Assembly: GCA_965198115.1 (NCBI GenBank)
Contig: OZ240241.1
Coordinates: 7,136,001-7,200,000, forward strand
Direction: 5' to 3'
DNA length: 64,000 nt
Source: Candidatus Latescibacterota bacterium
GTDB taxonomy: Bacteria; Latescibacterota; UBA2968
Positions 2,731 through 22,065 of this stretch are shown in pieces. The notes under the pieces were generated by a model, which saw nothing but the letters and a program-made list of their open reading frames with translations, was not told where the DNA came from and ran no database searches. A program made the position numbers and the translations under genes. Position 1 is the stretch's first letter, and each line of letters opens with the position of its first letter.

Positions 2731-3990
2731 GTGGGAAAGAAGAGGCGGGCCACGTCGGGTCTGTGTGTGGCCGTTTCGGAGGACGTCAGAGCGATCCGCC
2801 AACTGATCGATCGGGTTGTCCGAACGGGCGAGCTTCCCCTTTCCGGCAACGACTCCCCACGTGTCCGGGAGGCTCTGCAGGAACGGGAAGACACTTGGCC
2901 ACGCGGCAGGCGGCGAGAAGAGGTGGGCAGACGTGCCATTGATTGGTGCAGGCGGCTGGTCGTCGCCGAGCTCTTCGCGCGGCCAACCGGCCTGCCGGCG
3001 ATCGCGAGGTCTGTGGAGGCGGATAGCGAGGTCGTGCAGGACGACCTGTCGGTGGTTTCGGCGTACCGGACTCTGGCCTTGGGACTTGGACAGGCCGACG
3101 CTGCACTTTCCAGGACCCGGAGACGAATCGAGAGACTGCAGGTAGACGCCTTCCAAAACTTGGCCGAGGCAGGCGGATTGGAGCCACGGCGGAGAATCAG
3201 GAACGAGATAACCGACCGGGAGGTGAAGCTCTGCGAATTGCTGATGAAGTTGGGGTTCCTCGGACCGATCGGGCGCTCCCTGCGGGAGGGGGAGTCCGAC
3301 GCGGAGCGTGGCGTGAGGGATCCCGCCGGTCCTCCACCAGGTACCGGCAAACCGTATCAAGGACAAGAGTACATCGCAGCGATCAGCCAGCTGACAGAGG
3401 CCGTGGTCTACCCAGATGAACTGCCCGTATACGGCGCCGGCTCCGTGCGCGTCCTGAAGATCCTACAACAGGGCGGGGACAAGTGGACCGCTGGAAGGAA
3501 GGAGCGAGGGTCGGATGAGCACATGGCCGTATGGGCGAGACGGCTGCTGGTCGCCGCACAGTTGGCCGAGGGAGTTGGACCTGCACACATCGCGGCGTCG
3601 GACGTAGACAGATCGGTCGTGTACAACGACATCAGGGCCCTCAACGAGCACGGACTCCTTATGCCTGGTCGCGAGCCGGCGAAGGATGTGATCGCCAAGA
3701 TCCTGATCCGCTTGGAGTACTTGCAGAGGGCTGCTTTCGAGGATCTGATCGATGCGGAGGAGGCAGAAGCTTTGCTACGGCTCAGGATACGGGTCGAGAT
3801 CGAGAAGAGGGAGCTTGCGACATTCGAGATCCTCAAGGAACTCGGGATCTTCGACTCGTTAGGTTGGCACCAAGAAAACCCAAGCGTGCTTCGAGGTCCT
3901 CGATGCTCTGCCGGCCGCACACAAACATTCAAGGTCGGTGCATGCACCTATCGGGTGAATTACATCCCATTCAAGGAGCAAGAAGCCTAG
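2731..3990 (+). CDS. Hypothetical protein with two tandem HTH + helical modules (terminase-small-subunit-like)
   Basis: Internal duplication: WCRRLVVAELF..IARSVEADSEVVQDDL..RIERLQVDAF..RIRNEITDRE..LMKLGFL versus WARRLLVAAQL..IAASDVDRSVVYNDI..RLEYLQRAAF..RIRVEIEKRE..LKELGIF. GGAGAG RBS upstream. Confidence 0.6.
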   Translation: MGKKRRATSGLCVAVSEDVRAIRQLIDRVVRTGELPLSGNDSPRVREALQEREDTWPRGRRREEVGRRAIDWCRRLVVAELFARPTGLPAIARSVEADSEVVQDDLSVVSAYRTLALGLGQADAALSRTRRRIERLQVDAFQNLAEAGGLEPRRRIRNEITDREVKLCELLMKLGFLGPIGRSLREGESDAERGVRDPAGPPPGTGKPYQGQEYIAAISQLTEAVVYPDELPVYGAGSVRVLKILQQGGDKWTAGRKERGSDEHMAVWARRLLVAAQLAEGVGPAHIAASDVDRSVVYNDIRALNEHGLLMPGREPAKDVIAKILIRLEYLQRAAFEDLIDAEEAEALLRLRIRVEIEKRELATFEILKELGIFDSLGWHQENPSVLRGPRCSAGRTQTFKVGACTYRVNYIPFKEQEA

Positions 3991-4199
3991 GTCCGGATAG
4001 GGGGGCACCCACCCCCGTACGGAGTTTTCAAGATGTCAACAAAGCATCGGGCTCAGACCCGCAGAGACAAGCGTCCAGCCAAGAAGCGGACAAGACGCAT
4101 CAAGGTTCGAGGTCGGACCTGTCGTGGAAGACAGAAGGAAGGCGCTAGGCCTGCCGTCCTTCTTCGAGGACAAGAAGCAGCTCGCCCAGGCGCGGCAGT

Positions 4200-4631: not shown

Positions 4632-5057
4632 GCCACATGGTCTTAAGTTGAGAGCCTCAAAGTCCTTACCGATCAGTAGCCCTGCCACTGACAAGCTTCG
4701 CTCGGTCCCAGAATAGACGCTTGGATTCCGGGAGTTCTGCGTGCCTGATGCTACCTGCATGGTTTGGCGTCGGTTTCGTGCTCTTCGAGCATTCATCGAG
4801 GTCCTATCCCCAACCCACCAGGTACCAGCCATCAGGAGGATCAGTATGGCGGCCAGAACCCCAGCTTCCCGGCCAGAGAGTCGGAATCCCAGGCACCAGG
4901 AATATGACACTGCCCTTCACGATCCATTCGCCCCGTCTATAATCTCTGTTTAAACCTGCAACCACGTCATCGCATACCATAGATTTCTAACCGCTTCGTC
5001 TTCTTAGTCTTCTTGGCCTTCTTCGTGCGCTTCACCGGGTTCGACACGCATAAAAAT

Positions 5058-6477
5058 GGCTCTATCCGGGTTTCTCAACGGTGAAACTATAGAATGACAA
5101 GGTCATAGATCGTTCCCTACGCTTGGTTGTGTGTGTAGGACAATCAAAGCGAAGGGGGTGCGACCTATGACCGGGAGCAGATTACTATCGAAACTGCTGA
5201 GATTCAAGGGGTTCCGTGTTGTCAGCTGGTGGTTTGAGGGGAGAAGCTGTTTCGTCATCGCCGTAAAGCCACATAAGAATGGTTGTTGTTGTCCGGAGTG
5301 CGGCTGTCGAGGTAAAATCGTCCGCACAATGCCCCATCCGCGTCGGTGGCGTGACATTCCGGTGTGCGGGTGGAGGGTCTGGCTTCTCTACCATCCTCGG
5401 GAGATTCGGTGTCCTACCCACGGTCGTGTGGTCGAGGAGATTCCGTGGGCGGAGCGGTTCTCTCGGGTGACGTATCGCTTCGAGTATGCCATGCTGCGCT
5501 ACTGCCAGACCATGACGCAGAAGGCGGCGTCCGAGTTGCTGCGCATCTCTGCCTCGACGCTGTCGGATCTCCTTCACCGATCCATCACGCGGCTTCGTGA
5601 AGGTCATCGTATCCGAGGGCTCAAAACCATCGGGATCGACGAGATCTCCTACGCCAAGCGTCACAGGTACGCCACGCTCGTTTACGATCTGGACCGCTCC
5701 TGCGTGGTGTGGGTTGGCCGCGGCAGGGCGCGTAAAACGATCGATCGGTTCTTCACAGAGGCTCTCAGTCCCTACCGGAGATCCAAGATCGAGTGGGCCT
5801 GCTGCGACATGAGCGAAGCTTACATCGGAGCCATCCAGGAACACTGTCCGAATGCCAAGCTGGTCCTCGATCGCTTTCACATCGTCAAGGCTCTCAATGC
5901 CGCCGTTGACGAGGTCCGTAAGGACCAGTGGCGTAAAGCTGCCCCGGATGAGCGCAAAGCTATGAAGGGCCTCCGATGGCTCCTCTACCGGCACTCAGCG
6001 ACACGCTCCAGAGGGGATACTCGGACACTCAAAGCACTGGAGAAGGCGAACTACCGAATCTATAGAGCCTGGAGACTCAAGGACGAGTTCGAGCAGTTCT
6101 GGGAATACAAAGCGCCCTGGGCTGCCGAACGCTTCCTGAAATGCTGGACGACGTCCGCACTCAGAAGTCGACTTGAACCCCTGCGAAAGTTCGTCAGGAC
6201 CCTGCGACAGCACTTCTTCGGCGTCCTCGCATTCGTGAACACGCGTCTTACCAACGCCATCGCCGAAGGCCTCAACCGAATCGTCCAAATCGTCAAGAAC
6301 CGAGCCAGCGGATTCCGCACACTCGACGCATTCAACGATATGATCTTCCTTACCGTCGGAGACATAAACATCCCTGAGCAGATTCCGAAGAGGTTCCGCA
6401 CACTCTAACCGCGCCCCCATGCCAGGAACCACGGCACCTTCACCCACTTCATCTCGTTGAGAGATCCGGATATAGCC
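5058..6477 (+). mobile_element. ISL3-family insertion sequence, copy 1 (1420 bp)
   Basis: IRs GGCTCTATCCGGGTTTCTCAACG and CGTTGAGAGATCCGGATATAGCC; AT-rich duplication TAAAAAT at 5051-5057 and 6478-6484. Confidence 0.95.
5131..6408 (+). CDS. ISL3-family transposase
   Basis: Zn finger CPECG..CPTHG, IGIDEISY, ACCDMS, DRFH, TNAIAEGLN..RASGFR. Confidence 0.95.
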   Translation: MCRTIKAKGVRPMTGSRLLSKLLRFKGFRVVSWWFEGRSCFVIAVKPHKNGCCCPECGCRGKIVRTMPHPRRWRDIPVCGWRVWLLYHPREIRCPTHGRVVEEIPWAERFSRVTYRFEYAMLRYCQTMTQKAASELLRISASTLSDLLHRSITRLREGHRIRGLKTIGIDEISYAKRHRYATLVYDLDRSCVVWVGRGRARKTIDRFFTEALSPYRRSKIEWACCDMSEAYIGAIQEHCPNAKLVLDRFHIVKALNAAVDEVRKDQWRKAAPDERKAMKGLRWLLYRHSATRSRGDTRTLKALEKANYRIYRAWRLKDEFEQFWEYKAPWAAERFLKCWTTSALRSRLEPLRKFVRTLRQHFFGVLAFVNTRLTNAIAEGLNRIVQIVKNRASGFRTLDAFNDMIFLTVGDINIPEQIPKRFRTL

Positions 6478-6863
6478 TAAAAATAGGTCGCCGGGCTGGC
6501 ACTCGAAGAACCCACACAGACGCTCGAGCGCCTCGACGTCCAGTCGCTTCATCCGGCTGTGGTAGATGTCGGAAATAGTCGCAGGCCGAATCTTTGTGGC
6601 GTCCGCAACTTGCTTCTGATTCAACGGCCCGCCTTCGGCTCCCGCTTCGGGTTGCGGAATCCCCCCAAAACCTCCGAACACCTGGAGCTTGAACTGGCGC
6701 CCGAAAACTACCGGCTCAAGCTGAGTTCGCTGCCCAAGGTCTGCCCCGACAAGAACTTCAAGTTTCGGGTGACCGGACACCGGCATCCGCTCGAACTCGC
6801 CACGTAGCCCCGGTGGCCGTCGGATCGCCGGGACGATCCCCGGAAACCGGCCCGCCTACCGGC

Positions 6864-8578: not shown

Positions 8579-8619
8579 TCCGTGTCTCTGCTGATTCGTC
8601 TACGTGTTCAGGTGAGGTC

Positions 8620-8722
8620 CCTATCCTAGTTGAAACTTAAAGGGCTCCTTTCTTACGGGTATACGCTCCTACACGTCTACCCAACGTAAGTTTGGAGCCC
8701 TTTAAGTTTCAACTAGGATAGG
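8620..8722. repeat. 103-bp hairpin element with perfect 29-bp terminal inverted repeats (MITE-like)
   Basis: CCTATCCTAGTTGAAACTTAAAGGGCTCC (8620-8648) is the exact reverse complement of 8694-8722; the interior also pairs (CTTACG/CGTAAG, GGGTA/TACCC). Confidence 0.85.
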
Positions 8723-9146: not shown

Positions 9147-9410
9147 ATGAAAACTGTCAATGCTTTGGAGCTTCGCCAATCCCTCGGCAAGGTGCTTGAT
9201 CAGCTTGAGCGCGACGGAGCCCCCATTGTTGTGTGCCGTCGCCGGACTCCAGCCGCCGCTCTGGTGAGTCTCAAGGACTACCGAGAACGGTTTGTCGACC
9301 AAGAAGCCGACGAACGTCGGCGCGCCGTGGTCGCCAGGCTCAAGCAGCTCCAGTTCGAGCCCCCCCCCAGCGGCACCACCCTCGACATACTACGCGACTT
9401 GCGGTCGTGA
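9147..9410 (+). CDS. Phd/YefM-family antitoxin
   Basis: MKTVNALELRQSLGKVLDQLE..PIVVCRRRTPAAALVS matches the Phd N-terminal fold; GTGA overlap with the PIN gene. Confidence 0.88.
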   Translation: MKTVNALELRQSLGKVLDQLERDGAPIVVCRRRTPAAALVSLKDYRERFVDQEADERRRAVVARLKQLQFEPPPSGTTLDILRDLRS

Positions 9411-9817
9411 TCGTTCTCGATGCCTCGGTCGCGATCAAGTGGTTCGTGAGGGATGAACCGCTGACCGCCGAAGCCGGGCAGGTGCTCGACGCGATCGAAC
9501 TCGATCCGTCACCGTATTCGGTTCCAGACTTCTTCATGAATGAATTGCTCGCCGTGCTGTGCCGCCTTCCCGCCAGCCGGCCGGCACAAGTACAGGAAGC
9601 CTTGGCTCTCGTCGAGGCGCTAGGGATCACACGAGTTGGCAATGGACACGAGTTGCTGGCGCTCGCCGCTGACTTCGCCAGCCGGTGGAAGATCTCGGGC
9701 TACGACGCGGTGTACGTGGCGTTAGCCGCGCTGTCGGATGGCGTCTGGCTCACGGCCGATGCCCGGGCCGCCCGCCGCGTCGGCCGTGAGCATCTGGTGC
9801 GCGTGCTCGGATCATAG
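9407..9817 (+). CDS. vapC: VapC-family PIN-domain toxin
   Basis: GTG start at 9407; IVLDASVAIKWF, NEL, YDAVYVALA, LTAD PIN acidic motifs. Confidence 0.9.
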   Translation: MIVLDASVAIKWFVRDEPLTAEAGQVLDAIELDPSPYSVPDFFMNELLAVLCRLPASRPAQVQEALALVEALGITRVGNGHELLALAADFASRWKISGYDAVYVALAALSDGVWLTADARAARRVGREHLVRVLGS

Positions 9818-10577: not shown

Positions 10578-11070
10578 ATGTTGGCCAAGCGCGACCCGGC
10601 CGATGCGCGACCCGAAGAGGAGTTGGATCATGCCGTCCGCCAGATCGTCTCCCGCGCGGTAGCCTCCGAAGACGTGATCGACATCTTCGCCGCCGCCGGC
10701 TTGGAGAAGCCCGATCTCTCGATCCTGTCCGAGGAGTTCCTTGCCGAGGTGCGGGGTATGCCGCAACGCAACCTGGCCGTCGAGCTGTTGCAAAAGCTCT
10801 TGAAAGGCGAGCTTGCCACCCGCCGCAAGAAAAACGTGGTGCAGGCGCGATCGTTCGCCCAGATGCTGGAGCAGACCCTCCGCCGCTATCAGAACCGCGC
10901 CGTCGAGGAGGTGATCGAGGAACTGATCCAGCTCGCCCGGGAATTGCGGGAGGCGAACGCCCGCGGCGAAAAGCTCAGACTAACGGAGGACGAGCTGGCC
11001 TTCTACGACGCGCTGGAGACCAATGACAGCGCCGTCCAGGTGCTGGGCGACGAAACTCTTCGAGAGAATA
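10578..11070 (+). pseudogene. hsdR: Type I restriction subunit R C-terminal (DUF3387) fragment
   Basis: [68 protein letters not shown]; nuclease and helicase domains absent. Confidence 0.85.
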
Positions 11071-11113
11071 TCAGTGAAGTAAGCAAATGGAACTCGCCAA
11101 GATTGCAGCGTGA

Positions 11114-11350
11114 ATGCGGAGAACGTATATGGACTCGATGACCGGGGAGGATCGAGAATCGTGGAGGAAGATCATGGTGGTAGTAGATTGCATAGATGAC
11201 CCTGCACCGTGTCCCAAGTGCGAGAAAAAAGCAATCAAGCAAACCTACCCGGTGCGACCAAGGCCCACCGCACCCGAGAACGGCGAAGACGTGTCTGATG
11301 CTTTAGGCCAAGTGTTCTGTGAAAGCTGTAACCAAACGTATAGCCCGTAG
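11114..11350 (+). CDS. Small zinc-ribbon protein
   Basis: CPKC ... CESC in a 78-aa ORF, followed by a hairpin and T-tract. Confidence 0.4.
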
Positions 11351-11615: not shown

Positions 11616-14600
11616 GTGACGTACCTACACGCAATCCAGCGTCGTTACTATTGCGAAGACCTCGTACGCCTCCGTCGCGCCGACGACCGTCGGCGTCATG
11701 CCGCGTCTCAGCGTCGGGGTCGCATTGACCCGAACCCGCACCAGATCGATGCGGTGATGTTTGCGTTGCGCCGGATCCCCGAGGGTGGGTGCATCCTTGC
11801 CGACGAGGTCGGCCTCGGCAAGACTATCGAAGCCGGCTTGGTTATCGCGCAGCTTCTGGCCGAAGGTGCGATCCGCGTCCTGATCATCGTACCGCGCCCC
11901 CTACTGGGTCAATGGCAGAGCGAGCTTTACACCCTCTTTGGCATTGAGGCAATCGAGGCTGATACGGCCCCCAATGTGGAAGGTGCAGGCGTGTTCATTG
12001 CCGGCCGCGAGTATGCGGGCGGTAACCGAGGTTTCGCGCACCTAAGCACTACGCCTCCGTTCGATCTTTGCCTTATTGACGAAGCGCACGAGGTATTCGC
12101 CGGCATCTACAGGCGTTTCGACCGCTACGGGGCATACGAAGAGGATAGCCGTCACGCGAACACGGCCCATCGTGTAAGAAAAGTGATCGGAGCCTCGCCG
12201 GTCCTACTGCTGACTGCGACGCCAATACAGAACTCGTTAGCGGAGCTATGGGGGTTGGTGCAATACGTCGATCCGACCGGCACGCTACTGGGTTCAAGAT
12301 CGACATTCGAAGAACTTTTTTGCGAGGATAGCAATGGACGCAGTGTCGTCAGTGAGCAAGCAGTTGAGCTGCGTCGCCGATTGTCTAGCGTAGTGCAAAG
12401 GACGCTACGACGACAGGCACAGGAGTTCCTTGATAGGCCGTTCGTCGGCCGCCGTGCCCAGCTTTTCGAATACGGAATGAGTCCTGAAGAGCGTGCCCTC
12501 TATGATGACGTGACGGACTACCTTTTACGGCCTCAGCTGTGTGCGTTTCGGGGTCGGTCACGTCAGCTCTTGCTGCTGGGGTTCCATCGCCGCATGGCCT
12601 CATCTACGGCGGCACTTGCGCAGAGCCTTGAGCGTATTGCCGTACGGCTACGCCGAATGTTGCAGGGAGAATCTGAGACTGTCGCCAACGAGGAGGGCGA
12701 GGCGTTTCTGAGAGATCTCGAAGAAGAAGGAACACCCGAACAAACTGGAGATGCCCAGGCCGAATGGGTCGAGGTTCCGGGCGACGGATCCCCGCCGGAT
12801 CCAGGCGCCATACAGGCGGAGATCGACCTTGTGGAGACGTTCGTGCGCCGTGCGCGGTCCCTTCCCCACGATAGCAAGGCTGAAAGCCTAATTAGGGCCG
12901 TGCGCCTAGTTACCTCCCGTGATGAGGATCGACAAAAAGTCGTCATCTTCACGGAGTCACTCACAACACAAGATTACCTACGCAAACTGCTGGTCGAACA
13001 GGCCCGACTGCAAGACGAGGACATTACCCTTTTCCGCGGCACCAACGAATCACCCCGTGACATGCAAGCACTCTCCCAGTGGCGTGATGAGGTCGAGCGG
13101 GAGATTGCGCCTCATATGCGCCCCAGCTCTGACATCGCTGTCAGACTCGCCCTGGTCCACGAATTCCGTACTCGCACGAAAGTGATGATCTCTTCCGAAG
13201 CCGGCGCTAAGGGACTGAACCTACAATTCTGTGACACCCTGATTAATTACGATCTGCCCTGGAATCCACAGCGAATCGAGCAACGGATTGGACGTTGCCA
13301 CCGATATGGTCAGAGGCGAGATGTTACAGTTATCAACTTCCTCGCAAAAGACAATGAAGCGCAGCGTCTCACATTCGAAATCCTCAGCACCAAGCTCGAT
13401 CTGTTCGGGCAGGTGCTTGACAGCTCAGACGTAGTACTGCAAACGCCCCGCTCGGACTCTTCGGCGAGCTTGGCTTCGGCCCTTGGTCCCAACTTCGAAT
13501 CCGAACTTCGTCGGATTTGGGACCGAGCTCGTTCAGTGCAGGAGGTGGAAGAGGAGCTTCGGCAGCTACGCGACACAATGGAAGACCGCCGAATGGAGCT
13601 TGAACGGGTTCGCGAGCGGACCAATGGGCTGATCGAAACCGGTTTCGACGACTCCGTCAAAGACGTGTTCCGGAATATCCAATCCGAACTCCCGTCAACG
13701 CTTGCCGAACTTGACGGAGATCTCGAACGTGTTTTGACCGGGTATCTCGATGCGGTTGGCGTGTCCTGGGGGGTTGCGGACCGAGACGGGAAACGCATTG
13801 TCCACGTTGGTGCGTCGGCTCAATTTCCGGGTATGATGGCGGACGGCGGGTCGGTCACCCTCGGGCCAGCCCACGACCTAACTGACAATGAGTCGCTCCA
13901 CCCCTCGCACCCATTGATCGAAGCATCCGTGGCAGAAGCACGCGAAACGGGCGCAGGCACGTTCCACGTTCGGTTCCTGCTCAGCAACGATGCACCAGAG
14001 GCCCTGCGCAACCGCCGGGGAGACCGGGGACGGCTCGCATTGACTAAGGTGATGAGCCGTGGTTTCGAGCGGGAGGACCGGCTGATTGTAACGGTTATTT
14101 TCGAAAATGAGGAAGTGCTGCGTCCAGCAGAAGCGGCAGCCGAGTTACTAAAGCAGAGGTGCGAAGACGTCGACGAAATGACTCCGCCAGTAACTATCAG
14201 TCCGATCCACCTGGACGAGGTGGTGGACGAGGAGGTCTTTATAGATCAGTCAGCTGCTGGCGATGCTGAGCAGGAGACCTTCTGCAGAGCAATAGATCAG
14301 CTCGACCAGTACGTCGCCGACAGGGTTTTGGTTCTCAAACGAACACGCGAGAAACATCGCCGACGGTTAGTCGAGGCCGAACAACGCCGAGACGGAGCGC
14401 TTGGCCCGGATCGACGTGAGCGAGAGCAGATGCAAGTCAACTCAATTGAGCGTGTCCTGGATGATCTTGACTTACAAATAGACGCTTTGGAGTCACACCA
14501 GGACGTCGATTACGAGCGCTGGAAAGCTCACACTCTTGCTCGGAGATATACGCCTACACAGATTGAGCGTCTGTTACAGGCGGAGTTTTGCATTGAGTGA
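11616..14600 (+). CDS. SNF2/RapA-family SF2 helicase (DrmD-like / RM-associated clade)
   Basis: IDPNPHQIDA, LADEVGLGKTIEAG, IDEAH, LTATPIQN, SSEAGAKGLNLQ, NYDLPWNP.RIEQRIGRCHRYGQ; long C-terminal coiled-coil region. Probable start GTG 11616 (ORF open from 11517). Confidence 0.9.
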   Translation: MTYLHAIQRRYYCEDLVRLRRADDRRRHAASQRRGRIDPNPHQIDAVMFALRRIPEGGCILADEVGLGKTIEAGLVIAQLLAEGAIRVLIIVPRPLLGQWQSELYTLFGIEAIEADTAPNVEGAGVFIAGREYAGGNRGFAHLSTTPPFDLCLIDEAHEVFAGIYRRFDRYGAYEEDSRHANTAHRVRKVIGASPVLLLTATPIQNSLAELWGLVQYVDPTGTLLGSRSTFEELFCEDSNGRSVVSEQAVELRRRLSSVVQRTLRRQAQEFLDRPFVGRRAQLFEYGMSPEERALYDDVTDYLLRPQLCAFRGRSRQLLLLGFHRRMASSTAALAQSLERIAVRLRRMLQGESETVANEEGEAFLRDLEEEGTPEQTGDAQAEWVEVPGDGSPPDPGAIQAEIDLVETFVRRARSLPHDSKAESLIRAVRLVTSRDEDRQKVVIFTESLTTQDYLRKLLVEQARLQDEDITLFRGTNESPRDMQALSQWRDEVEREIAPHMRPSSDIAVRLALVHEFRTRTKVMISSEAGAKGLNLQFCDTLINYDLPWNPQRIEQRIGRCHRYGQRRDVTVINFLAKDNEAQRLTFEILSTKLDLFGQVLDSSDVVLQTPRSDSSASLASALGPNFESELRRIWDRARSVQEVEEELRQLRDTMEDRRMELERVRERTNGLIETGFDDSVKDVFRNIQSELPSTLAELDGDLERVLTGYLDAVGVSWGVADRDGKRIVHVGASAQFPGMMADGGSVTLGPAHDLTDNESLHPSHPLIEASVAEARETGAGTFHVRFLLSNDAPEALRNRRGDRGRLALTKVMSRGFEREDRLIVTVIFENEEVLRPAEAAAELLKQRCEDVDEMTPPVTISPIHLDEVVDEEVFIDQSAAGDAEQETFCRAIDQLDQYVADRVLVLKRTREKHRRRLVEAEQRRDGALGPDRREREQMQVNSIERVLDDLDLQIDALESHQDVDYERWKAHTLARRYTPTQIERLLQAEFCIE

Positions 14601-14646
14601 CTGTTCAGACCAAGAGCAGCTGGACCGACAACTACAGGACAGCGAA

Positions 14647-15780
14647 ATGGCATTGACAGTTCTACACACTGCGGACTGGCATCTCGGGCGACGCTTCCCG
14701 TCGTTTCGGCCGGAACAAGAATTGCGTCTTACGCGGGCACGGCTAGAAGTTGTTGGACGCATCCTCGATCTCGCGCACAGCCGTAACGTCGATGCAGTTT
14801 TGGCTGCAGGAGACCTGTTCGATGAATCCTCACCACCCAAAGAATGGTGGGGCGGTCTCTTGAAGGAATTCCAGCGACGCGACTGGGCTCGCCCGGTAGT
14901 ACTACTCCCCGGTAACCACGACCCCCTGATGGCGCGCTCTGTTTACCACCCAGACCACCCATTCCGTGCTGGGCTGCCAGAATACGTTCACGTCGTTGAC
15001 GAAGAAGGCTTTACACTCGAGCTCGATGATCGTGCAGTCGTCATCGCGAACCCTTGCCGATCACACGCCGGACAAACCGACATTGCATCATCCCTGCCAG
15101 ACCGCGAACCCAACGAGAGCCGTTTCAGAATCGGACTTGTCCATGGACAGACCTTCGACATCGAGGGCTATCAAACCAACTTTCCCATCGCTAGCGGTAT
15201 CGCCGCAGAGCGAGGTCTCGATTACCTCGCAATCGGTGACACGCATGCCTTTCGGGATGTTGAGCCAGAGGCTACTGCCCCTACGATCTATCCTGGTGCG
15301 CCTGAGGCAACAAATTTCGGAGAGAACGAAACTGGCTCCGTGGCAATCGTATTCTTCCCGCTTGATCGGGCGCGGAGACCGATAGTTCGGCGGGAGCAAG
15401 TCGGAACTTGGGAATGGCGAGAAGTAATCTGCAGATCGATGTCGGATCTTCGTTCGCTCGCTGGGGCTAGCGACCTACGCAAGACAGTACTTCGACTTAA
15501 GCTCGAAATGGTGGTTCCGATGGAAGAATACGACGAGGCGGAACGCATCTTGATCGAGCTCCGCGGTTCCCTCGCTGCTAATCCACGGGTAGGGGTCCTG
15601 TCCGAGGATCGCAACGGGTTACATCTCGCCACGGACACGCCCATCGAGTTCGGTAAAGAGCTGCCAGCGGTACTTCAATCGACGATCTCGCGTCTGCAGG
15701 ATAGAAGCGAATCTAATCCTAAGGTAGCTGAACGAGCTCTGCATCATCTGTACCGCCTAGTCAAGGAAGCAGCGAGTTAA
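14647..15780 (+). CDS. Mre11/SbcD(YhaO)-like metallophosphoesterase nuclease
   Basis: All five motifs present: TADWHLG, AGDLFD, PGNHD, VHG, GDTH; YPGAPE. Stop overlaps the next start (TAATG). Confidence 0.92.
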   Translation: MALTVLHTADWHLGRRFPSFRPEQELRLTRARLEVVGRILDLAHSRNVDAVLAAGDLFDESSPPKEWWGGLLKEFQRRDWARPVVLLPGNHDPLMARSVYHPDHPFRAGLPEYVHVVDEEGFTLELDDRAVVIANPCRSHAGQTDIASSLPDREPNESRFRIGLVHGQTFDIEGYQTNFPIASGIAAERGLDYLAIGDTHAFRDVEPEATAPTIYPGAPEATNFGENETGSVAIVFFPLDRARRPIVRREQVGTWEWREVICRSMSDLRSLAGASDLRKTVLRLKLEMVVPMEEYDEAERILIELRGSLAANPRVGVLSEDRNGLHLATDTPIEFGKELPAVLQSTISRLQDRSESNPKVAERALHHLYRLVKEAAS

Positions 15781-18700
15781 TGGCAATGTGGATCCAGAAA
15801 ATCGAAGTCACTGATCTTGCTGGTATAGCCAGCGCGAGCATCGACCTCGGGCCGGGCTTGAACATCCTCCACGGGCCAAACGAGATCGGTAAGTCGAACA
15901 TCGTGAAGGCGGTGCGTGCCTCACTGCTTCTGCCAGCGGGTTCAGTCGCAGCTGAATCGCTCCTCGATTGGAACACTGATGCGACGCCAAAGGTGTCTCT
16001 AACCTTTGAACAGGAGCCTCAACGCATTTGGCGCGTCCGGAAGAGCTATGGCAGCGGCCGCGATGCCTGGAGTTACCTCGAATTTTCCCGAGACGGACAC
16101 GACTTCACACAGGACAAAAGGGGCCGGGAGGTCGACGGTGCCCTTCAGGAAATTCTTAGGTGGGGAGTAGAGACACCTGGGGGTCGGGGTCGACGCAGAC
16201 GAGGTCTTCCAGAATCGTTCATAACCAAAGTCTTGATAGCCGATCAGAGCGACGTGGTAGCCATACTTAAGAAGAGCCTATCAGACGACGATGACGAATC
16301 AGGTCGACAGCGACTGACTGAGGCATTGCAGGCGATGGCCGAGGATCCGTTATTCAAGAGAATCATGTCGTCGGCTCAAGAGAAGGTAGACGAGGCGTTT
16401 ACCGGCACAGGTCGCCACAGATCTGGACGCGGGTCTCCTTGGGTCCGCGTACGAGACAAGCTTCAGGCCGCCCAACGACGAGAATCGGAGTTGAGGAGTC
16501 AACTTGAGGAAAGCGAAGGAACGCGACAGCGGGTCGATGAGCTACACCAGGAGCGGCTAACGGCACAAGCGCAAGAAGATAAGTGCAAGCAGGAACTGGA
16601 AGTCGCCGTCCGAGACATCGAGCGCAAGCGTGACCGCGAAGCCGCTATCGATGCACTCTCGGATGCCGAGAAGGAAATGGCTCGTATAGAGTCAGCTATG
16701 GGGGAATGCGAAACCAATGCGGCGGCCGTCGAGACAGCCCGTACCGAATTTACAGAAGCAGTGGAAGAGAGAGCTGAATCAGAGGGTGAGTTGTCCCAGT
16801 TGAAATCGAGCGTGGAAGAGGAGCGGATGCGAGTCTCTGAAATCGAGAGCGACGAGGCAGAGCAAAAGCGACGAATACGCGAGCAGGACGCACAGAACTC
16901 GCTCTTGCGGCTGGATGCAGAACATCAAGAATGTGAGAAGGCACGTCTTCAGGCAGAACGCGTCAAGGAATTAGCTGAGACGGCCGCCGTGCTAAGGGAG
17001 GAGATCGAATCGGAGGAAAAGATATCGGAGGAGACGAAGAAGCTGATCGAACAGACACAAGGCGTCCTCGATGCGGACAAGAAGGAGCTACAAGAATTCG
17101 ATCTGCAGCTAAGGTTCTGCAGATGGTCGGTCTCTGGTAAAAGGGTCGGATCCCTCAGAGGTCAATTCGAAGAATCGGCTGATAGCCACAAACGAGCTGA
17201 CGAGTTCTTGGCGAAAGCAGAGCGGAACCGAGACCAGGCTGACGCTGTGAGTACACCTGATGAGGACGATGTTGCAAAGCTGCGCAACATCGAGGCTGAT
17301 CTACGGGTGGCACAAGAAAGGTTGGCTGTCGGCCTCCTTGTATCGATGACACCTGAGAAGGATCTCCAAGTAAGCATAGAGATCGACGGTGAGTCTGTCG
17401 ACCATCGTCTAGTTGCAAGTGATACAACCGAGTTTGAGGCCGCCCGAGAGCTGCGCGTTGACATACCAGGATTCGGCGAGCTTCGTGTAATGGGGGGTAA
17501 CAAGGCCCTGGCTCGGGAAGTGCAGGAGGCGGAGGATCGGTGGGAGAAGGCCTGGGAGCCTATCATTGTGTCCACGGGTTGCCGAACGATCCCCGATCTC
17601 GAGATGCTCTTGCAGAGATGCAGAGAGCAGCTCTCAGAGGCGCAGGCTTTTGAACAGGAAGCCGCAATGTTGCAGGTCAAAGCAGGAAGCGTGGACGATC
17701 TCGAGCGCCAGGTTACCCTTGCCGAGGAGGAGGAGGCTCGGGCCAAAGATGATCTTGCCGTCGGGATTAAGGAATCGATCATCGATGGGCGTAGCCATCT
17801 GACTGCGGACGAGTACGTGGATAGCCTCAGGGAGAATCCCCCAGACATACGAAACGTTGAGGAAGCGATTGAAACTGTCGAGTCAAAGGTGAGCGAGCAG
17901 GAGCTGCTGTGCCATAAACTCGATTCAGGAATGTCTGGAAAGCGCGCCCGGCTTGAAGCTCAGCGTGAAGAACTCAACGAGAGAGAGAAGGAACTCGACC
18001 GTGAGAAGGGCAAGTTGAGTGGCGAGTGGCAGACCATACTGAGGTCATCCACCGAGGATCTTGAAAGAATCCAGAGAGACCGCATTAAAATCGACGATGA
18101 CCTCAAAGCAATCAACAAGGAAGCTGCCACTGATGTCGAGGAGGCACGTTCGTCGCTAGCAGCAGCTAAAGAGGAAATGACGAAAGCGGAGAAGGCCCTA
18201 TCGGAGGCCAATGAGGAGATCGACCGATGCCGAAGTGAACTTGCGCGACTCGAGGGCGAACTCACCATCCAGCGCAAGGCAGTCGAAACCGAAGATCACG
18301 AAGGTGCGAAGTCCCTTACCGACGAATGTGCGGCTCGCCTGGATTCCCTTCCGGAACCAGAAAACGAAGAGGTCGATGACGCCCTCCGGGTTAAGATGGA
18401 GGAGACCGCCGCACGAGCGTCGCGAAAGACCCAGGAACTCGAGAACGAACTCCGGCGTGTTGAGGGAGCTCTCGAACAGATCGGTGGAAGCTACATTGAG
18501 GAACAGGTGAATCAATCGCAAGAGGCGATCGAGGCCGTAAGACAGCAAGAGCTTGACCTCGAACTCGAATTCGGTGCTTGGCAACTATTGCGGGAGACAT
18601 TGGCTGAGGCCGAGCAGCAGGATTCGGTGCATTTGGGCAACGCTCTCGTTGAACCAGTCAGCGCACGAATGAGCACGCTGACTGGCGGGCGTTACGGGGA

Positions 18701-19034
18701 CATTGCGATCGGACCTCAGATGGACGCAACTGGCATCCACCTCGCAGGAAGCGAGCGTCAATTCGATAGCCTATCAGTCGGGACGCAAGAACAGGTCGCG
18801 CTTATGCTTCGGCTCTCAATTGCCGAAGCACTTGGAACCTTCCTAATCCTCGACGACCAGGCCACCCAGTCCGATCCTCAGCGGATGGAATGGATCCGGG
18901 ATGTGCTCGAGAGAGCTGCAGAAGAGATTCAGGTGGTGGTCATGACGTGTCATCAGGAAGATTATGTGGGTGAAGGACTACCTGTAGACTCACACGTTGT
19001 GGACCTGGCTGACTGTGTGGAGCGGACACCGTAG
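15780..19034 (+). CDS. Rad50/SbcC(YhaN)-like ABC ATPase with long coiled coil
   Basis: Walker A GPNEIGKS, signature LSVGTQEQ, Walker B/D-loop LILDDQATQSD, H-loop TCH; long coiled coils; no CxxC hook. Confidence 0.9.
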   Translation: MAMWIQKIEVTDLAGIASASIDLGPGLNILHGPNEIGKSNIVKAVRASLLLPAGSVAAESLLDWNTDATPKVSLTFEQEPQRIWRVRKSYGSGRDAWSYLEFSRDGHDFTQDKRGREVDGALQEILRWGVETPGGRGRRRRGLPESFITKVLIADQSDVVAILKKSLSDDDDESGRQRLTEALQAMAEDPLFKRIMSSAQEKVDEAFTGTGRHRSGRGSPWVRVRDKLQAAQRRESELRSQLEESEGTRQRVDELHQERLTAQAQEDKCKQELEVAVRDIERKRDREAAIDALSDAEKEMARIESAMGECETNAAAVETARTEFTEAVEERAESEGELSQLKSSVEEERMRVSEIESDEAEQKRRIREQDAQNSLLRLDAEHQECEKARLQAERVKELAETAAVLREEIESEEKISEETKKLIEQTQGVLDADKKELQEFDLQLRFCRWSVSGKRVGSLRGQFEESADSHKRADEFLAKAERNRDQADAVSTPDEDDVAKLRNIEADLRVAQERLAVGLLVSMTPEKDLQVSIEIDGESVDHRLVASDTTEFEAARELRVDIPGFGELRVMGGNKALAREVQEAEDRWEKAWEPIIVSTGCRTIPDLEMLLQRCREQLSEAQAFEQEAAMLQVKAGSVDDLERQVTLAEEEEARAKDDLAVGIKESIIDGRSHLTADEYVDSLRENPPDIRNVEEAIETVESKVSEQELLCHKLDSGMSGKRARLEAQREELNEREKELDREKGKLSGEWQTILRSSTEDLERIQRDRIKIDDDLKAINKEAATDVEEARSSLAAAKEEMTKAEKALSEANEEIDRCRSELARLEGELTIQRKAVETEDHEGAKSLTDECAARLDSLPEPENEEVDDALRVKMEETAARASRKTQELENELRRVEGALEQIGGSYIEEQVNQSQEAIEAVRQQELDLELEFGAWQLLRETLAEAEQQDSVHLGNALVEPVSARMSTLTGGRYGDIAIGPQMDATGIHLAGSERQFDSLSVGTQEQVALMLRLSIAEALGTFLILDDQATQSDPQRMEWIRDVLERAAEEIQVVVMTCHQEDYVGEGLPVDSHVVDLADCVERTP

Positions 19035-19068
19035 TGCAGAACGGTAGGCCCTGCCATAACTACCCCGT

Positions 19069-19130
19069 GGTAAGCCCCCGGCTCTGCCGGGGAGACTCCC
19101 AGAGTTTGACAGTTCGAGAAATATGTAAGA
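19069..19130 (+). mobile_element. Orphan IS200/IS605-type end hairpin (remnant)
   Basis: AAGCCCCCGGCTCTGCCGGGG hairpin followed by GACTCCCAGAGTTTGACAGTTC, resembling from memory the left ends of IS200-like tnpA elements; no tnpA follows. Confidence 0.5.
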
Positions 19131-19154
19131 GCGGCGCGTTCTCCGGGCGAATTA

Positions 19155-19355
19155 GTGAAGGGCGAGACATTCGAGGCCGTCCTTCTCGTCCTAAAGAGTA
19201 AGGGTATAGGGCCTTTCTACCGGACGATGTTGGGCGAGGGGAAGAGCGCAGCAGACCACGAAGAACTACGCATTGCATATTTTGGGTTTACTAGGCCCAG
19301 AAAGATCCTGTGCCTAGCTGTTTCTACTGAGGCTGATAGCGAGGGCTTGGGTTGA
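19155..19355 (+). pseudogene. UvrD/SF1 helicase extreme C-terminal fragment (GajB-like)
   Basis: (V)KGETFEAVLL...EELRIAYFGFTRPRKIL corresponds to SF1 motifs V and VI; everything upstream is missing. Confidence 0.7.
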
Positions 19356-19575: not shown

Positions 19576-19849
19576 GGTCGGTGCCCGGGATCATCGACGA
19601 CGCCACCTGGCAAAAGGCACAGCCTGCGGCCAAGGACGGCAAGAAGTCGCAAGGCACCCGCACCGACGCGACCGAGTATCTGTTGGCAAGCTTCTTCGTT
19701 GCGGAGTCTGTCACGAAGAGGACCGAGGATACCGAGGGGGTGGACGGGGGATGTATGGCCAACGGTCGAACCTGATCGATGGCCGGCTCTACTGCAACGC
19801 CAGATTCGATCAGTTCGGAAAGAGGTGCAGCGCGCCCAGCCAAAAAATA

Positions 19850-21269
19850 GGCTATATCCGGATCTCTCAACGAGATGAAGTGGGTGAAGGTGCCGTGGTT
19901 CCTGGCATGGGGGCGCGGTTAGCGTGTGCGGAACCTCTTCGGAATCTGCTCAGGGATGTTTATGTCTCCGACGGTAAGGAAGATCATATCGTTGAATGCG
20001 TCGAGTGTGCGGAATCCGCTGGCTCGGTTCTTGACGATTTGGACGATTCGGTTGAGGCCTTCGGCGATGGCGTTGGTAAGACGCGTGTTCACGAATGCGA
20101 GGACGCCGAAGAAGTGCTGTCGCAGGGTCCTGACGAACTTTCGCAGGGGTTCACGTCGACTTCTGAGTGCGGACGTCGTCCAGCATTTCAGGAAGCGTTC
20201 GGCAGCCCAGGGCGCTTTGTATTCCCAGAACTGCTCGAACTCGTCCTTGAGTCTCCAGGCTCTATAGATTCGGTAGTTCGCCTTCTCCAGTGCTTTGAGT
20301 GTCCGAGTATCCCCTCTGGAGCGTGTCGCTGAGTGCCGGTAGAGGAGCCATCGGAGGCCCTTCATGGCTTTGCGCTCATCCGGGGCAGCTTTACGCCACT
20401 GGTCCTTACGGACCTCGTCAACGGCGGCATTGAGAGCCTTGACGATGTGAAAGCGATCGAGGACCAGCTTGGCATTCGGACAGTGTTCCTGGATGGCTCC
20501 GATGTAAGCTTCGCTCATGTCGCAGCAGGCCCACTCGATCTTGGATCTCTGGTAGGGACTGAGAGCCTCTGTGAAGAACCGATCGATCGTTTTACGCGCC
20601 CTGCCGCGGCCAACCCACACCACGCAGGAGCGGTCCAGATCGTAAACGAGCGTGGCGTACCTGTGACGCTTGGCGTAGGAGATCTCGTCGATCCCGATGG
20701 TTTTGAGCCCTCGGATACGATGACCTTCACGAAGCCGCGTGATGGATCGGTGAAGGAGATCCGACAGCGTCGAGGCAGAGATGCGCAGTAACTCGGACGC
20801 CGCCTTCTGCGTCATGGTCTGGCAGTAGCGCAGCATGGCATACTCGAAGCGATACGTCACCCGAGAGAACCGCTCCGCCCACGGAATCTCCTCGACCACA
20901 CGACCGTGGGTAGGACACCGAATCTCCCGAGGATGGTAGAGAAGCCAGACCCTCCACCCGCACACCGGAATGTCACGCCACCGACGCGGATGGGGCATTG
21001 TGCGGACGATTTTACCTCGACGGCCGCACTCCGGACAACAACAACCATTCTTATGTGGCTTTACGGCGATGACGAAACAGCTTCTCCCCTCAAACCACCA
21101 GCTGACAACACGGAACCCCTTGAATCTCAGCAGTTTCGATAGTAATCTGCTCCCGGTCATAGGTCGCACCCCCTTCGCTTTGATTGTCCTACACACACAA
21201 CCAAGCGTAGGGAACGATCTATGACCTTGTCATTCTATAGTTTCACCGTTGAGAAACCCGGATAGAGCC
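19850..21269 (-). mobile_element. ISL3-family insertion sequence, copy 2 (1420 bp)
   Basis: Same IRs as copy 1, inverted; 8-bp duplication AAAAAATA at 19842-19849 and 21270-21277. Confidence 0.95.
19919..21196 (-). CDS. ISL3-family transposase (near-identical to 5131..6408)
   Basis: Four amino-acid differences visible versus copy 1 (GCR/GRR, YRR/YQR, SRL/SRR, terminal L/R). Confidence 0.95.
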   Translation of the reverse strand: MCRTIKAKGVRPMTGSRLLSKLLRFKGFRVVSWWFEGRSCFVIAVKPHKNGCCCPECGRRGKIVRTMPHPRRWRDIPVCGWRVWLLYHPREIRCPTHGRVVEEIPWAERFSRVTYRFEYAMLRYCQTMTQKAASELLRISASTLSDLLHRSITRLREGHRIRGLKTIGIDEISYAKRHRYATLVYDLDRSCVVWVGRGRARKTIDRFFTEALSPYQRSKIEWACCDMSEAYIGAIQEHCPNAKLVLDRFHIVKALNAAVDEVRKDQWRKAAPDERKAMKGLRWLLYRHSATRSRGDTRTLKALEKANYRIYRAWRLKDEFEQFWEYKAPWAAERFLKCWTTSALRSRREPLRKFVRTLRQHFFGVLAFVNTRLTNAIAEGLNRIVQIVKNRASGFRTLDAFNDMIFLTVGDINIPEQIPKRFRTR

Positions 21270-21870
21270 AAAAAATATCGGACGTGAATCAGCGAGTGTC
21301 CGCACAAGTGCATCGGATGCTGATGAAGCCCGAGAAAATCCTGGCGATCTGGCAGGAACAGTTCGATTCAGAAGGCGGAGAAGCGATGGCGCAGCGACTC
21401 GAAAGTCTGAAAAAGAAGAGGGACGGTCTTGCAGGACATGTTGAGCGAGCGGATTTTGCGTACGTATCTGGAACGCTGACGGGAAGCCGGTATCAAAAGC
21501 AAGTGGACAGGATCCAAGCAGAAGGCGTGCACCTGGATCAAGAGATTCATCAGATAACTGCCAAGCTGGATGCGCGCGAGGGGGCCGACGCACTTAAGGA
21601 TGGTCTCGCCCACGCGCTGACGTTTGCGGGCGATGGAATCCTCTCGCTAGTCGATGTCGACGATACGGTTCCATCTTTTCTCGTAAAGAATAGAAGCTAC
21701 TCAGAGGATCAGCTTAAGCAGTTTCGAATGCGCAAGGCCATCATCCACGCCTGTGTCGAGCGGATTCATCTACATCCGGGGGGTGAGATGGTCTTGGATT
21801 ACCGGGTGAATCCACGTAAACTCTCGGCAGCCTTTCTCTCTGTCGATGGGTTTGAACATCCAACTGGTAC

Positions 21871-21983
21871 CAGACACCAAGACACCAAGAGAAGCGCGGA
21901 GGACGGGAGACAGTGGACGTCTCCAGAGCCAAGGCGACCAGTGGCCCGTAGAGGGTTGACGGTTGACAGTAGACGGAGACGGC
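21871..21983 (+). repeat. Host-type degenerate tandem repeats (8-mer GACACCAA; 7-mer GTTGACG-like)
   Basis: CA-GACACCAA-GACACCAA-GAG and GTAGAGG-GTTGACG-GTTGACA-GTAGACG; the same 8-mer class occurs at 45501-45565. Confidence 0.6.
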
Positions 21984-22065
21984 TTCGCCTTTGTGGATAT
22001 TGACAATGAGGACAGTGACTGCGGCTTCGTCTGTTTGTGGTTCCTTAAGACTGTTTGAGGTTTGA

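Follow-up and report, generated by a model that had tools for sequence, protein, structure and literature searches.

The stretch of DNA analysed here (the window) comprises 64,000 nucleotides from a Candidatus Latescibacterota bacterium (assembly GCA_965198115.1, contig OZ240241.1, positions 7,136,001 to 7,200,000 of the forward strand) and contains, at positions 11616 to 19034, three co-oriented open reading frames that an earlier note, made from the sequence alone, had proposed as a defence system. The first gene (11616..14600, + strand) begins with a GTG start and encodes an SNF2-family, RapA/DrmD-like ATPase motor of 994 amino acids; the second (14647..15780, + strand) encodes a 377-residue Mre11/SbcD-like metallophosphoesterase, a predicted nuclease; and the third (15780..19034, + strand) encodes a Rad50/SbcC-like coiled-coil ABC ATPase of 1084 residues that lacks a CxxC hook. 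All three genes are intact and, as that note had described, carry their catalytic motifs and are tightly packed, with 46 bp between the SNF2 and nuclease genes and a TAATG overlap at the nuclease-ATPase junction. A search for a sigma-70 promoter upstream of the module found none.

The SNF2 protein matches the Pfam families SNF2-rel_dom and Helicase_C and contains the motifs DPNPHQ (residues 38 to 43), LADEVGLGKT (with Lys69), DEAH (155 to 158) and QRIGRCHRYGQ, all of which are conserved. Its top PADLOC match is DrmD (412 bits) and NCBIfam DrmD_b scores 414 bits. The AlphaFold2 model (pLDDT 86.4, pTM 0.86) predicts a helical N-terminus without a Tudor domain and, at the C-terminus, an α/β region and a long coiled-coil hairpin (about residues 863 to 959); a fold search with this model returned RapA as the closest solved fold. 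No nuclease of its own is recognisable in the SNF2 protein. The separate nuclease matches Pfam Metallophos, and its DWH (residues 10 to 12), GD (55 to 56), GNHD (89 to 92), His166 and His200 are invariant or nearly so. Mre11/SbcD proteins are its top PDB sequence matches, and no PADLOC family was matched at E 0.001. Against TIGR00619 it scores 65.3 bits, below the SbcD cut-off of 77.65, whereas the genome's own SbcD scores 142. Motif V is GDTH, the form found in 42 of 47 module nucleases; the genome's own SbcD has GHIH.

The ATPase contains the motifs GPNEIGKS, LSVGT, LILDDQ and TCH. Its Walker B motif ends in DD, in contrast to DE in the genome's own SbcC, and given this difference and the frequent arginine in the H-loop, ATP hydrolysis by the module ATPase is considered putative. 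The best VIA-align matches of its AlphaFold2 model (pLDDT 82.8) were Rad50 (Z 27.1, rmsd 20.5, 342 residues aligned) and again Rad50 (Z 26.1, rmsd 5.0, 330 residues aligned), with SbcC (Z 22.5) and Lamassu LmuB (Z 20.1) further down. At the apex of the coiled coil, in the place of the zinc hook, the model predicts a six-stranded β domain (residues 519 to 571 by DSSP; 17334..17492, + strand), which an alignment of 43 ATPases indicates is common to the SNF2-less relatives described below. None of 50 module ATPases has a CxxC hook, nor has any of five encoded in split operons; the genome's own SbcC has its hook (CPVC) at residue 511. Atlas matches of the apex scoring 0.95 or above were unnamed clusters only; leads to MksF/DUF3584 scored just 0.81 to 0.82 and were given no weight. 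A hydrophobic central stretch occurs in three module ATPases. A fused effector was considered for ATPases of 1,213 and 1,786 amino acids and rejected, the extra length being longer coiled coils and the hydrophobic stretch.

The arrangement recurs in other genomes, spanning several bacterial phyla. In genome draws the SNF2 gene lies immediately upstream of the clade nuclease at 38 of 38 loci, and in metagenomes at 39 of 44, the other five being decayed (two) or at contig ends (three); upstream of 36 weaker relatives it was never found. At E 1e-60 the nuclease family numbers 1,965 proteins. Because of these counts, the link between the three genes is not a matter of chance. Pairwise distances of the three genes also correlate (rho 0.72 to 0.78 across 26 loci), so that the conserved triplet anticipated in the earlier note is borne out. 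No conserved fourth gene accompanies it; this idea was rejected, the commonest neighbouring family occurring at only 6 of 37 loci. The SNF2 proteins of the module (n = 32) form one clade with support 97, and in the sister clade type III Mod or Res genes adjoin at 55 of 65 loci. Mod or Res genes were found at none of 57 module loci in the first set, and no methylase accompanies the module at the loci scanned, in keeping with the proposal that it is methylase-free. The nuclease and ATPase fall inside a family of hook-less, SbcEF-like pairs, which may be the Rv1277/Rv1278 family; this pair is widespread without SNF2. A canonical SbcCD is encoded elsewhere in the host genome, apart from the module, and its motifs differ, which upholds the distinction from housekeeping SbcCD.

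The module is flanked by remnants of defence genes, as the earlier note had recognised: the C-terminal part of a type I RM HsdR (10578..11141, + strand; Pfam T1RH-like_C, E 4.5e-62) upstream and that of a GajB-like UvrD (19110..19355, + strand; PADLOC, E 5e-16) downstream. Of the toxin-antitoxin pair claimed nearby (9147..9817, + strand), the PIN toxin (9407 to 9817) stands (Pfam, E 3.6e-12), while the overlapping small ORF ahead of it (9147 to 9410) resembles a Phd-type antitoxin by eye only and has no PADLOC match. IS3 and ISL3 elements lie close by. Defence neighbours were found at 15 of 32 first-found loci, with most positives from one subclade. The proposed enrichment in defence islands is only partly supported, being strong in this set but not in whole-phylum genome draws, where 7 of 33 loci had a defence gene within 6 kb, as did 2 of 14 control windows taken from those genomes (Fisher's test, one-sided, p 0.46); pooling gives 22 of 65 loci (p 0.13 against control windows), and SNF2-less pair loci were positive at 3 of 18. 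At all seven positives of the genome draw the defence gene is less than 1 kb from the module. The neighbours include Zorya I, overlapping the module (L107), Gabija (L006, L129), Avs2 (L108), type I RM (L012), BREX (L230, L234), Wadjet (L246) and Hhe-like helicases. AddAB-like or MgsA genes flank the module at L001, L010 and L013.

The distribution of the module is sporadic: it occurs in 2 of 168 genomes of one phylum, 9 of 401 of a second and 31 of 401 of a third (roughly 1 to 8 per 100), and none of 60 relatives of the host carries a close nuclease. Searches of plasmids and viral contigs yielded no close copy. The host assembly, listed at 5.1% contamination, contains elsewhere a second copy that is 99.9% identical by blastn and split by an IS256-like element; an 8-bp word (14543..14550 in the window) is duplicated at both junctions of this element. 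In the broken copy the nuclease gene is whole, the ATPase gene is cut and an SNF2 fragment lies far off. The G177 copy is frameshifted and, in addition, IS-split. In several Acidobacteriota and Myxococcota lineages the module occupies fixed sites among ordinary genes, related genomes sharing the same neighbours (L228/L231/L233; L244/L247/L251/L252/L254; L241/L243/L248/L250). Five Myxococcota genomes have a split operon, in which SNF2 and nuclease genes are adjacent and a full-length ATPase is encoded elsewhere; on the tree the ATPase has moved away at least three separate times. For these five, a settled cellular role fits better than a mobile cassette. The module nuclease is the sole SbcD-like match in 3 of 10 hosts checked, these being incomplete MAGs.

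The triplet matches no named system in PADLOC-DB 2.0.0 (2023) or in the openly accessible literature searched; the earlier note, too, named none. With SbcCD/Mre11-Rad50 it shares a nuclease gene followed by a translationally coupled ATPase gene, calcineurin-like phosphoesterase motifs I to V, and a split ABC ATPase with a Rad50-type head fold; it differs in the β apex in place of the CxxC hook, the GDTH and DD motifs, the obligatory SNF2 partner and its sporadic occurrence. Bacillus subtilis SbcE/SbcF is described as active in break repair and as lacking CxxC, with a unique domain in its centre (PMC2811018). By that description, SbcF-SbcE (YhaO-YhaN) resembles the module: in both, an SbcC-like ATPase that lacks the hook, deviates in its motifs and has a special domain at its centre is encoded next to an SbcD-like gene. 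The window ATPase has no AAA_27 (YhaN) match (other module ATPases scanned fall below the cut-off and several pair relatives above it), and our trees contain no YhaN sequence; the module also differs from SbcEF in having an SNF2 partner and no YhaM among its conserved neighbours. Lamassu derives from SbcCD, and its SbcC-derived, SMC-like ATPase is proposed to sense DNA ends in defence (PMC12663957). The module ATPase shares the LmuB fold noted above, but the module has an intact SbcD-like nuclease in place of LmuA and LmuC, plus the SNF2 motor; LmuB models match only ATPase residues 1 to 90 (the Walker A region), and LmuA and LmuC models match neither the nuclease nor its neighbours.

The SNF2 protein belongs to the same broad lineage as class 1 DISARM DrmD and the SNF2 proteins of type III RM and ietHAS, which are add-on motors to defence effectors. 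Of the kinship to DISARM and RM suggested earlier, the trees bear out the sister relation to helicases of type III RM operons; the protein itself falls below the DrmD family cut-offs (414 against 950 bits and 215 against 610 bits). No drmMI, drmA, drmB or drmC was found among the module neighbours scanned, and the host's single MZB (DrmB-type) gene lies 3.5 Mb away. In contrast to these systems, the module has no drmABC, methylase, Res or protease adjoining, its partner being the nuclease/ATPase pair. An SNF2 protein called DrmD-like is reported to be essential for ietHAS anti-phage activity, and mutation of ietH to render ietHAS toxic (PMC13069673). Hma (HmaABC; PMC11232893) couples an SNF2 helicase to a nuclease in phage defence; HmaA has a fused nuclease (NOV_C) and HmaB is a methylase, whereas the module nuclease is separate and Mre11-type and no methylase is present. 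Term searches of the ARMADA and BREX papers gave no description of the triplet.

The three products likely assemble into one unnamed machine. We favour, at a probability of about 0.55, the reading that this methylase-free module is a nuclease machine attacking DNA ends, mainly those of invading DNA; the DNA cut at free ends would probably belong to invaders, and in repair it may also be the cell's own. In the mechanism that we propose, the ATPase and nuclease would together make up a head of the Mre11-Rad50 type, which would scan DNA and close when it meets a free end or a hairpin; the β apex would substitute for the zinc hook. The SNF2 protein, from a lineage that serves restriction, would bind the nuclease side, translocate on duplex DNA and strip off end-blocking or transcribing proteins, making cutting processive. 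Self and non-self would be distinguished by the structure of the DNA, namely linear ends, hairpins and replication intermediates, rather than by methylation. In some lineages the module, settled at fixed sites, may serve as a repair aid as well. The points that we counted for this reading are the linkage, the co-divergence, the restriction-linked sister clade of the SNF2 protein, the ietHAS and Lamassu precedents, the sporadic spread, the IS turnover, the defence neighbours and the separate host SbcCD. Counted against it are the weak defence excess in the draws, the fixed synteny, the split operons and the lack of close copies on the plasmids and viral contigs searched. The AddAB-like and MgsA flanks, the hosts in which the module nuclease is the sole SbcD-like match, and the Walker B DD with the H-loop arginine were counted on the same side.

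Alternatively, the module could serve accessory genome maintenance, with an SbcEF-like end-processing pair that would have recruited a duplex translocase to free breaks and stalled forks of proteins or RNA polymerase. HerA partners Mre11-Rad50 in archaea, an analogy for such a role. We consider this less likely than the end-attack reading, though a serious contender. The break-repair activity described for the similarly hook-less SbcE/SbcF (PMC2811018), the fixed synteny and split operons of some lineages, the AddAB-like or MgsA neighbours at three loci, RapA as the closest solved fold of the motor and a genome draw in which defence genes show no clear surplus all point towards it. However, a repair function sits poorly with the rarity of the module in the sampled phyla and its absence from the 60 relatives of the host examined, with copies that are decayed or disrupted by IS elements, with the restriction-linked SNF2 sister clade, with retention of canonical SbcCD by the host, and with different defence systems repeatedly found within 1 kb.

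We consider it improbable that the module is an abortive system, in which the nuclease/ATPase would be a latent toxin degrading host DNA upon encountering phage ends and the SNF2 protein would restrain or license it, by analogy with IetH. The toxicity of ietHAS on mutation of ietH (PMC13069673) and the adjacency of SNF2 and nuclease genes, kept even where the ATPase has left, are consistent with this idea; that the broken second copy retains its nuclease gene whole, with its SNF2 fragment distant and its ATPase cut, speaks against it, albeit weakly because the intact copy could cover for the loss. That an orphan helicase from a DISARM or type III RM system merely hitch-hikes by chance beside an SbcEF-like pair is very unlikely: DrmD models do give the SNF2 protein its best scores and the pair is widespread without SNF2, but this is largely refuted by the linkage counts, and co-divergence, the single SNF2 clade, the absence of Mod and Res at every module locus of the first set and the distant MZB gene also argue against it.

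If the end-attack reading is correct, Lamassu, the one worked-out case in which SbcCD gave rise to immunity, would have a counterpart. There the SbcD nuclease was lost, and here it is kept. We would give even odds to the further claim of a new immune architecture, in which a Mre11-Rad50-like complex, kept whole where Lamassu rebuilt it and driven by a restriction-derived SNF2 motor, destroys invader DNA from its ends without a methylation mark, and which would be caught midway, with defence islands on one side and split, domesticated operons on the other, as a second, independent route between repair and immunity. The module adds an SNF2 motor, and the part that the lineage of this motor plays in DISARM and type III RM operons still lacks an explanation; with three genes and no methylase, the module makes that role directly testable. 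Should repair prove to be its function, the module would still be an undescribed bacterial Mre11-Rad50 machine that is coupled to a motor and whose apex lacks the hook.

The window encodes three intact, same-strand genes, as the earlier note had described: an SNF2 ATPase (11616-14600), a metallophosphoesterase nearest to Mre11/SbcD (14647-15780) that follows after 46 bp, and a coiled-coil ABC ATPase (15780-19034) that overlaps it through TAATG. The best profiles for the SNF2 protein are those of DrmD (PADLOC, 412 bits; NCBIfam DrmD_b, 414, where the cut-off is 950), and RapA is the closest fold to its model. The nuclease matches no PADLOC family and scores below the SbcD cut-off, and the ATPase model aligns best with Rad50 heads. 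The catalytic motifs were correctly reported for all three proteins, although some are deviant: the nuclease motif is GDTH in 42 of 47 module nucleases versus GHIH in the host's own SbcCD, Walker B of the ATPase is DD versus DE, and CxxC (CPVC in the genome's own SbcCD) occurs in none of the 50 module ATPases examined. The ATPase apex is predicted to be a six-stranded beta domain. Arm length varies about twofold among module ATPases, and in those of L116:11119-14757, L118:7163-12520 and L121:8466-13814 (1,213 to 1,786 aa) a strongly hydrophobic central stretch replaces the beta apex, as in SbcE.

The HsdR remnant, GajB remnant and PIN gene noted beside the module are all real. Elsewhere, the proposed defence-island enrichment was seen in our first set of loci and not clearly in a later draw of genomes from whole phyla. 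In the first set, 32 loci had at least 3 kb of flank, and 15 of them carried at least one defence gene (Zorya I, Gabija, Avs2, type I and IIG RM, GmrSD-like, Hma-like, AbiE, CRISPR III-B, Hhe-like helicases) no more than about 6 kb away, compared with 3/18 SNF2-less pair loci (one-sided p 0.03). The first-set scan took 95 hand-picked ORFs out of 196 neighbours, two positives were Pfam-based while the pair loci were scanned without Pfam, and the loci are non-independent, nine positives coming from one subclade. Generic kinase, sigma-54, Hsp70 and AddA matches were removed by hand from the defence counts. In the genome draw (236/255 neighbours scanned, E 1e-35), 7/33 loci were positive (Acidobacteriota 3/7, Myxococcota 4/26) against 2/14 control windows of the same genomes (one of 15 dropped; p 0.46), and pooling both sets against the control windows gave p 0.13; all seven draw positives lie <1 kb from the module, a closeness to which the 12-kb control window is blind. 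In three groups of related genomes the module is kept among the same ordinary genes. Given the first-set excess, the lack of a clear draw excess and these fixed neighbours, the defence-context evidence is lineage-dependent. We place a putative anti-invader use of the module at a probability of about 0.55, and accessory repair is a possible, more tentative reading.

Mre11-Rad50/SbcCD complexes recognise and cleave DNA ends and hairpins; SNF2 motors translocate along duplex DNA. In anti-invader use, the nuclease/ATPase pair would load onto DNA ends, the SNF2 protein would remove blocks and power processive cutting, and the target would be marked by DNA structure instead of methylation. Lamassu re-employs Mre11-Rad50/SbcCD end sensing for immunity (PMC12663957), and ietHAS needs a DrmD-like SNF2 that also restrains its toxicity (PMC13069673). 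That the module acts in abortive regulation appears unlikely.

A chance association of the three genes is scarcely credible. The SNF2-query scan of GTDB genomes gave at least 78 loci; among those listed, 11 had an SNF2 of at least 50% identity, ten with nuclease and ATPase directly 3' and one ending within SNF2. L012 and L013 (31-36% identity) have the same arrangement, and the remaining 65 listed loci lack the downstream pair. Searching metagenomes the other way round, with the nuclease as query, gave 80 loci, 44 of them within the nuclease clade: SNF2 lies upstream in 39 (HMM), a decayed remnant in two (by eye), and three begin at a contig end. In 35 the ATPase comes next, and the other nine stop within 160 bp. 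The 36 weaker nuclease relatives in metagenomes (26 with >1 kb of upstream sequence) all lacked an SNF2. Two phyla, sampled at 401 genomes each, added 38 loci, all with upstream SNF2; downstream lies the ATPase in 32, a contig end in one and another gene in five. In these five split genomes (Myxococcota; L253, L257-L260, L266-L270) the ATPase, full-length and with its Walker motifs intact, is encoded away from the adjacent SNF2 and nuclease genes, so the SNF2-nuclease link is the tightest; the tree requires at least three separate operon splits. The triplet is conserved across genomes, a check that the earlier note had proposed. Pairwise distances of the three genes correlate (Spearman 0.72-0.78, 26 loci; 0/300 shuffles as high), which indicates co-inheritance only, since kin share history. 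No conserved fourth gene was found among module neighbours.

The module occurs in 2/168 genomes of the host's phylum and in 9/401 and 31/401 of the phyla of two other hosts, G062 and G068, each count including the centre genome; a search of 60 relatives of the host gave no close nuclease (best E 9e-24). Named records, all MAGs, are from Acidobacteriota, Pseudomonadota, Myxococcota, Spirochaetota and Melainabacteria, and no close copy was found in the plasmids or viral contigs searched. A second SbcD-like match was present in 7/10 other hosts checked (three above cut-off, one very weak). The host genome carries a second module copy as two 99.9% identical fragments (G000:C1:378282-379625 and 4998656-5000384; L216, L217). 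Both abut the same IS256-like element, of which there are >60 full copies, and an 8-bp sequence is duplicated there; the ATPase fragment continues into a repeat with similarity to window 2731-3990. Either a second copy was disrupted and dispersed, or more than one strain was combined in the assembly. The copy in another host, G177, is frameshifted and IS-split.

IS expansion in the host is unusually large. The 8.4-Mb genome has >200 nearly complete copies of an ISL3 element (window 5050-6500 and 19800-21300) and about 14 of an IS3 (1020-2293). Short repeats at 8600-8700 (~82 copies), resembling the IS256-like end, and 19050-19120 (~48 copies), resembling an IS200/IS605-type end, also recur. 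Repeated ORFs of 419 and 205 aa at 2731-4148, with no Pfam match and related copies elsewhere in the genome, are possibly an unclassified mobile element. A 239-aa coiled-coil ORF (21284-22003), interrupted by ISL3 and present in several copies, resembles by eye a large serine recombinase C-terminus, with no Pfam or PADLOC match. Elsewhere, at L002:2104-8972 and L131:143-7008, a DUF4011/MTES_1575 SF1 helicase takes the place of ZorCD/ZorE after ZorA-like and OmpA/ZorB-like genes, and a TrwC relaxase lies alongside; these loci may represent a Zorya variant on an integrative element.

No PADLOC 2.0.0 system has this composition, as the earlier note had supposed, and none of the literature found names it in the article passages searched, which included those of PMC12839542, PMC12458937, PMC11232893, PMC2811018, PMC12663957, PMC13069673 and 10.1101/2022.05.11.491447.

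The 32 module SNF2s form one clade (FastTree, support 97; about half of the sister-clade rows included), with L012 and L013 on long branches. Their sister SNF2s lie with type III Mod or Res genes in 55/65 loci, and an annotated plasmid has the order SNF2, cargo, methylase, Res. At L014-L078 sister SNF2s lie ahead of type III mod/res and the content of the cargo slot varies (AIPR, PHP-ATPase, AAA_21 pair, Abi), so that these loci may be a defence hotspot. The module nucleases (45 rows) and ATPase heads (27 rows) each group with support 100, nested within a broader family of hook-less gene pairs with the same beta apex; the placement of L012 and L013 in these trees is not settled. Members of the SNF2-less family adjoin capHP, an Hhe-like helicase and an Ssp/BrxL cluster (L143, L145, L214). 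On viral contigs, SbcD-like domains start open frames of about 1,240-1,290 aa (L190, L192, L198-L200, L210-L212), possibly fused Mre11-Rad50 proteins. B. subtilis SbcF-SbcE resembles the pair family, as judged by its description in PMC2811018. The parts, linkage and ancestry of the module are established, its parts and logic are of known kinds, and the trees suggest that a restriction-linked motor probably joined an SbcEF-like pair, once.
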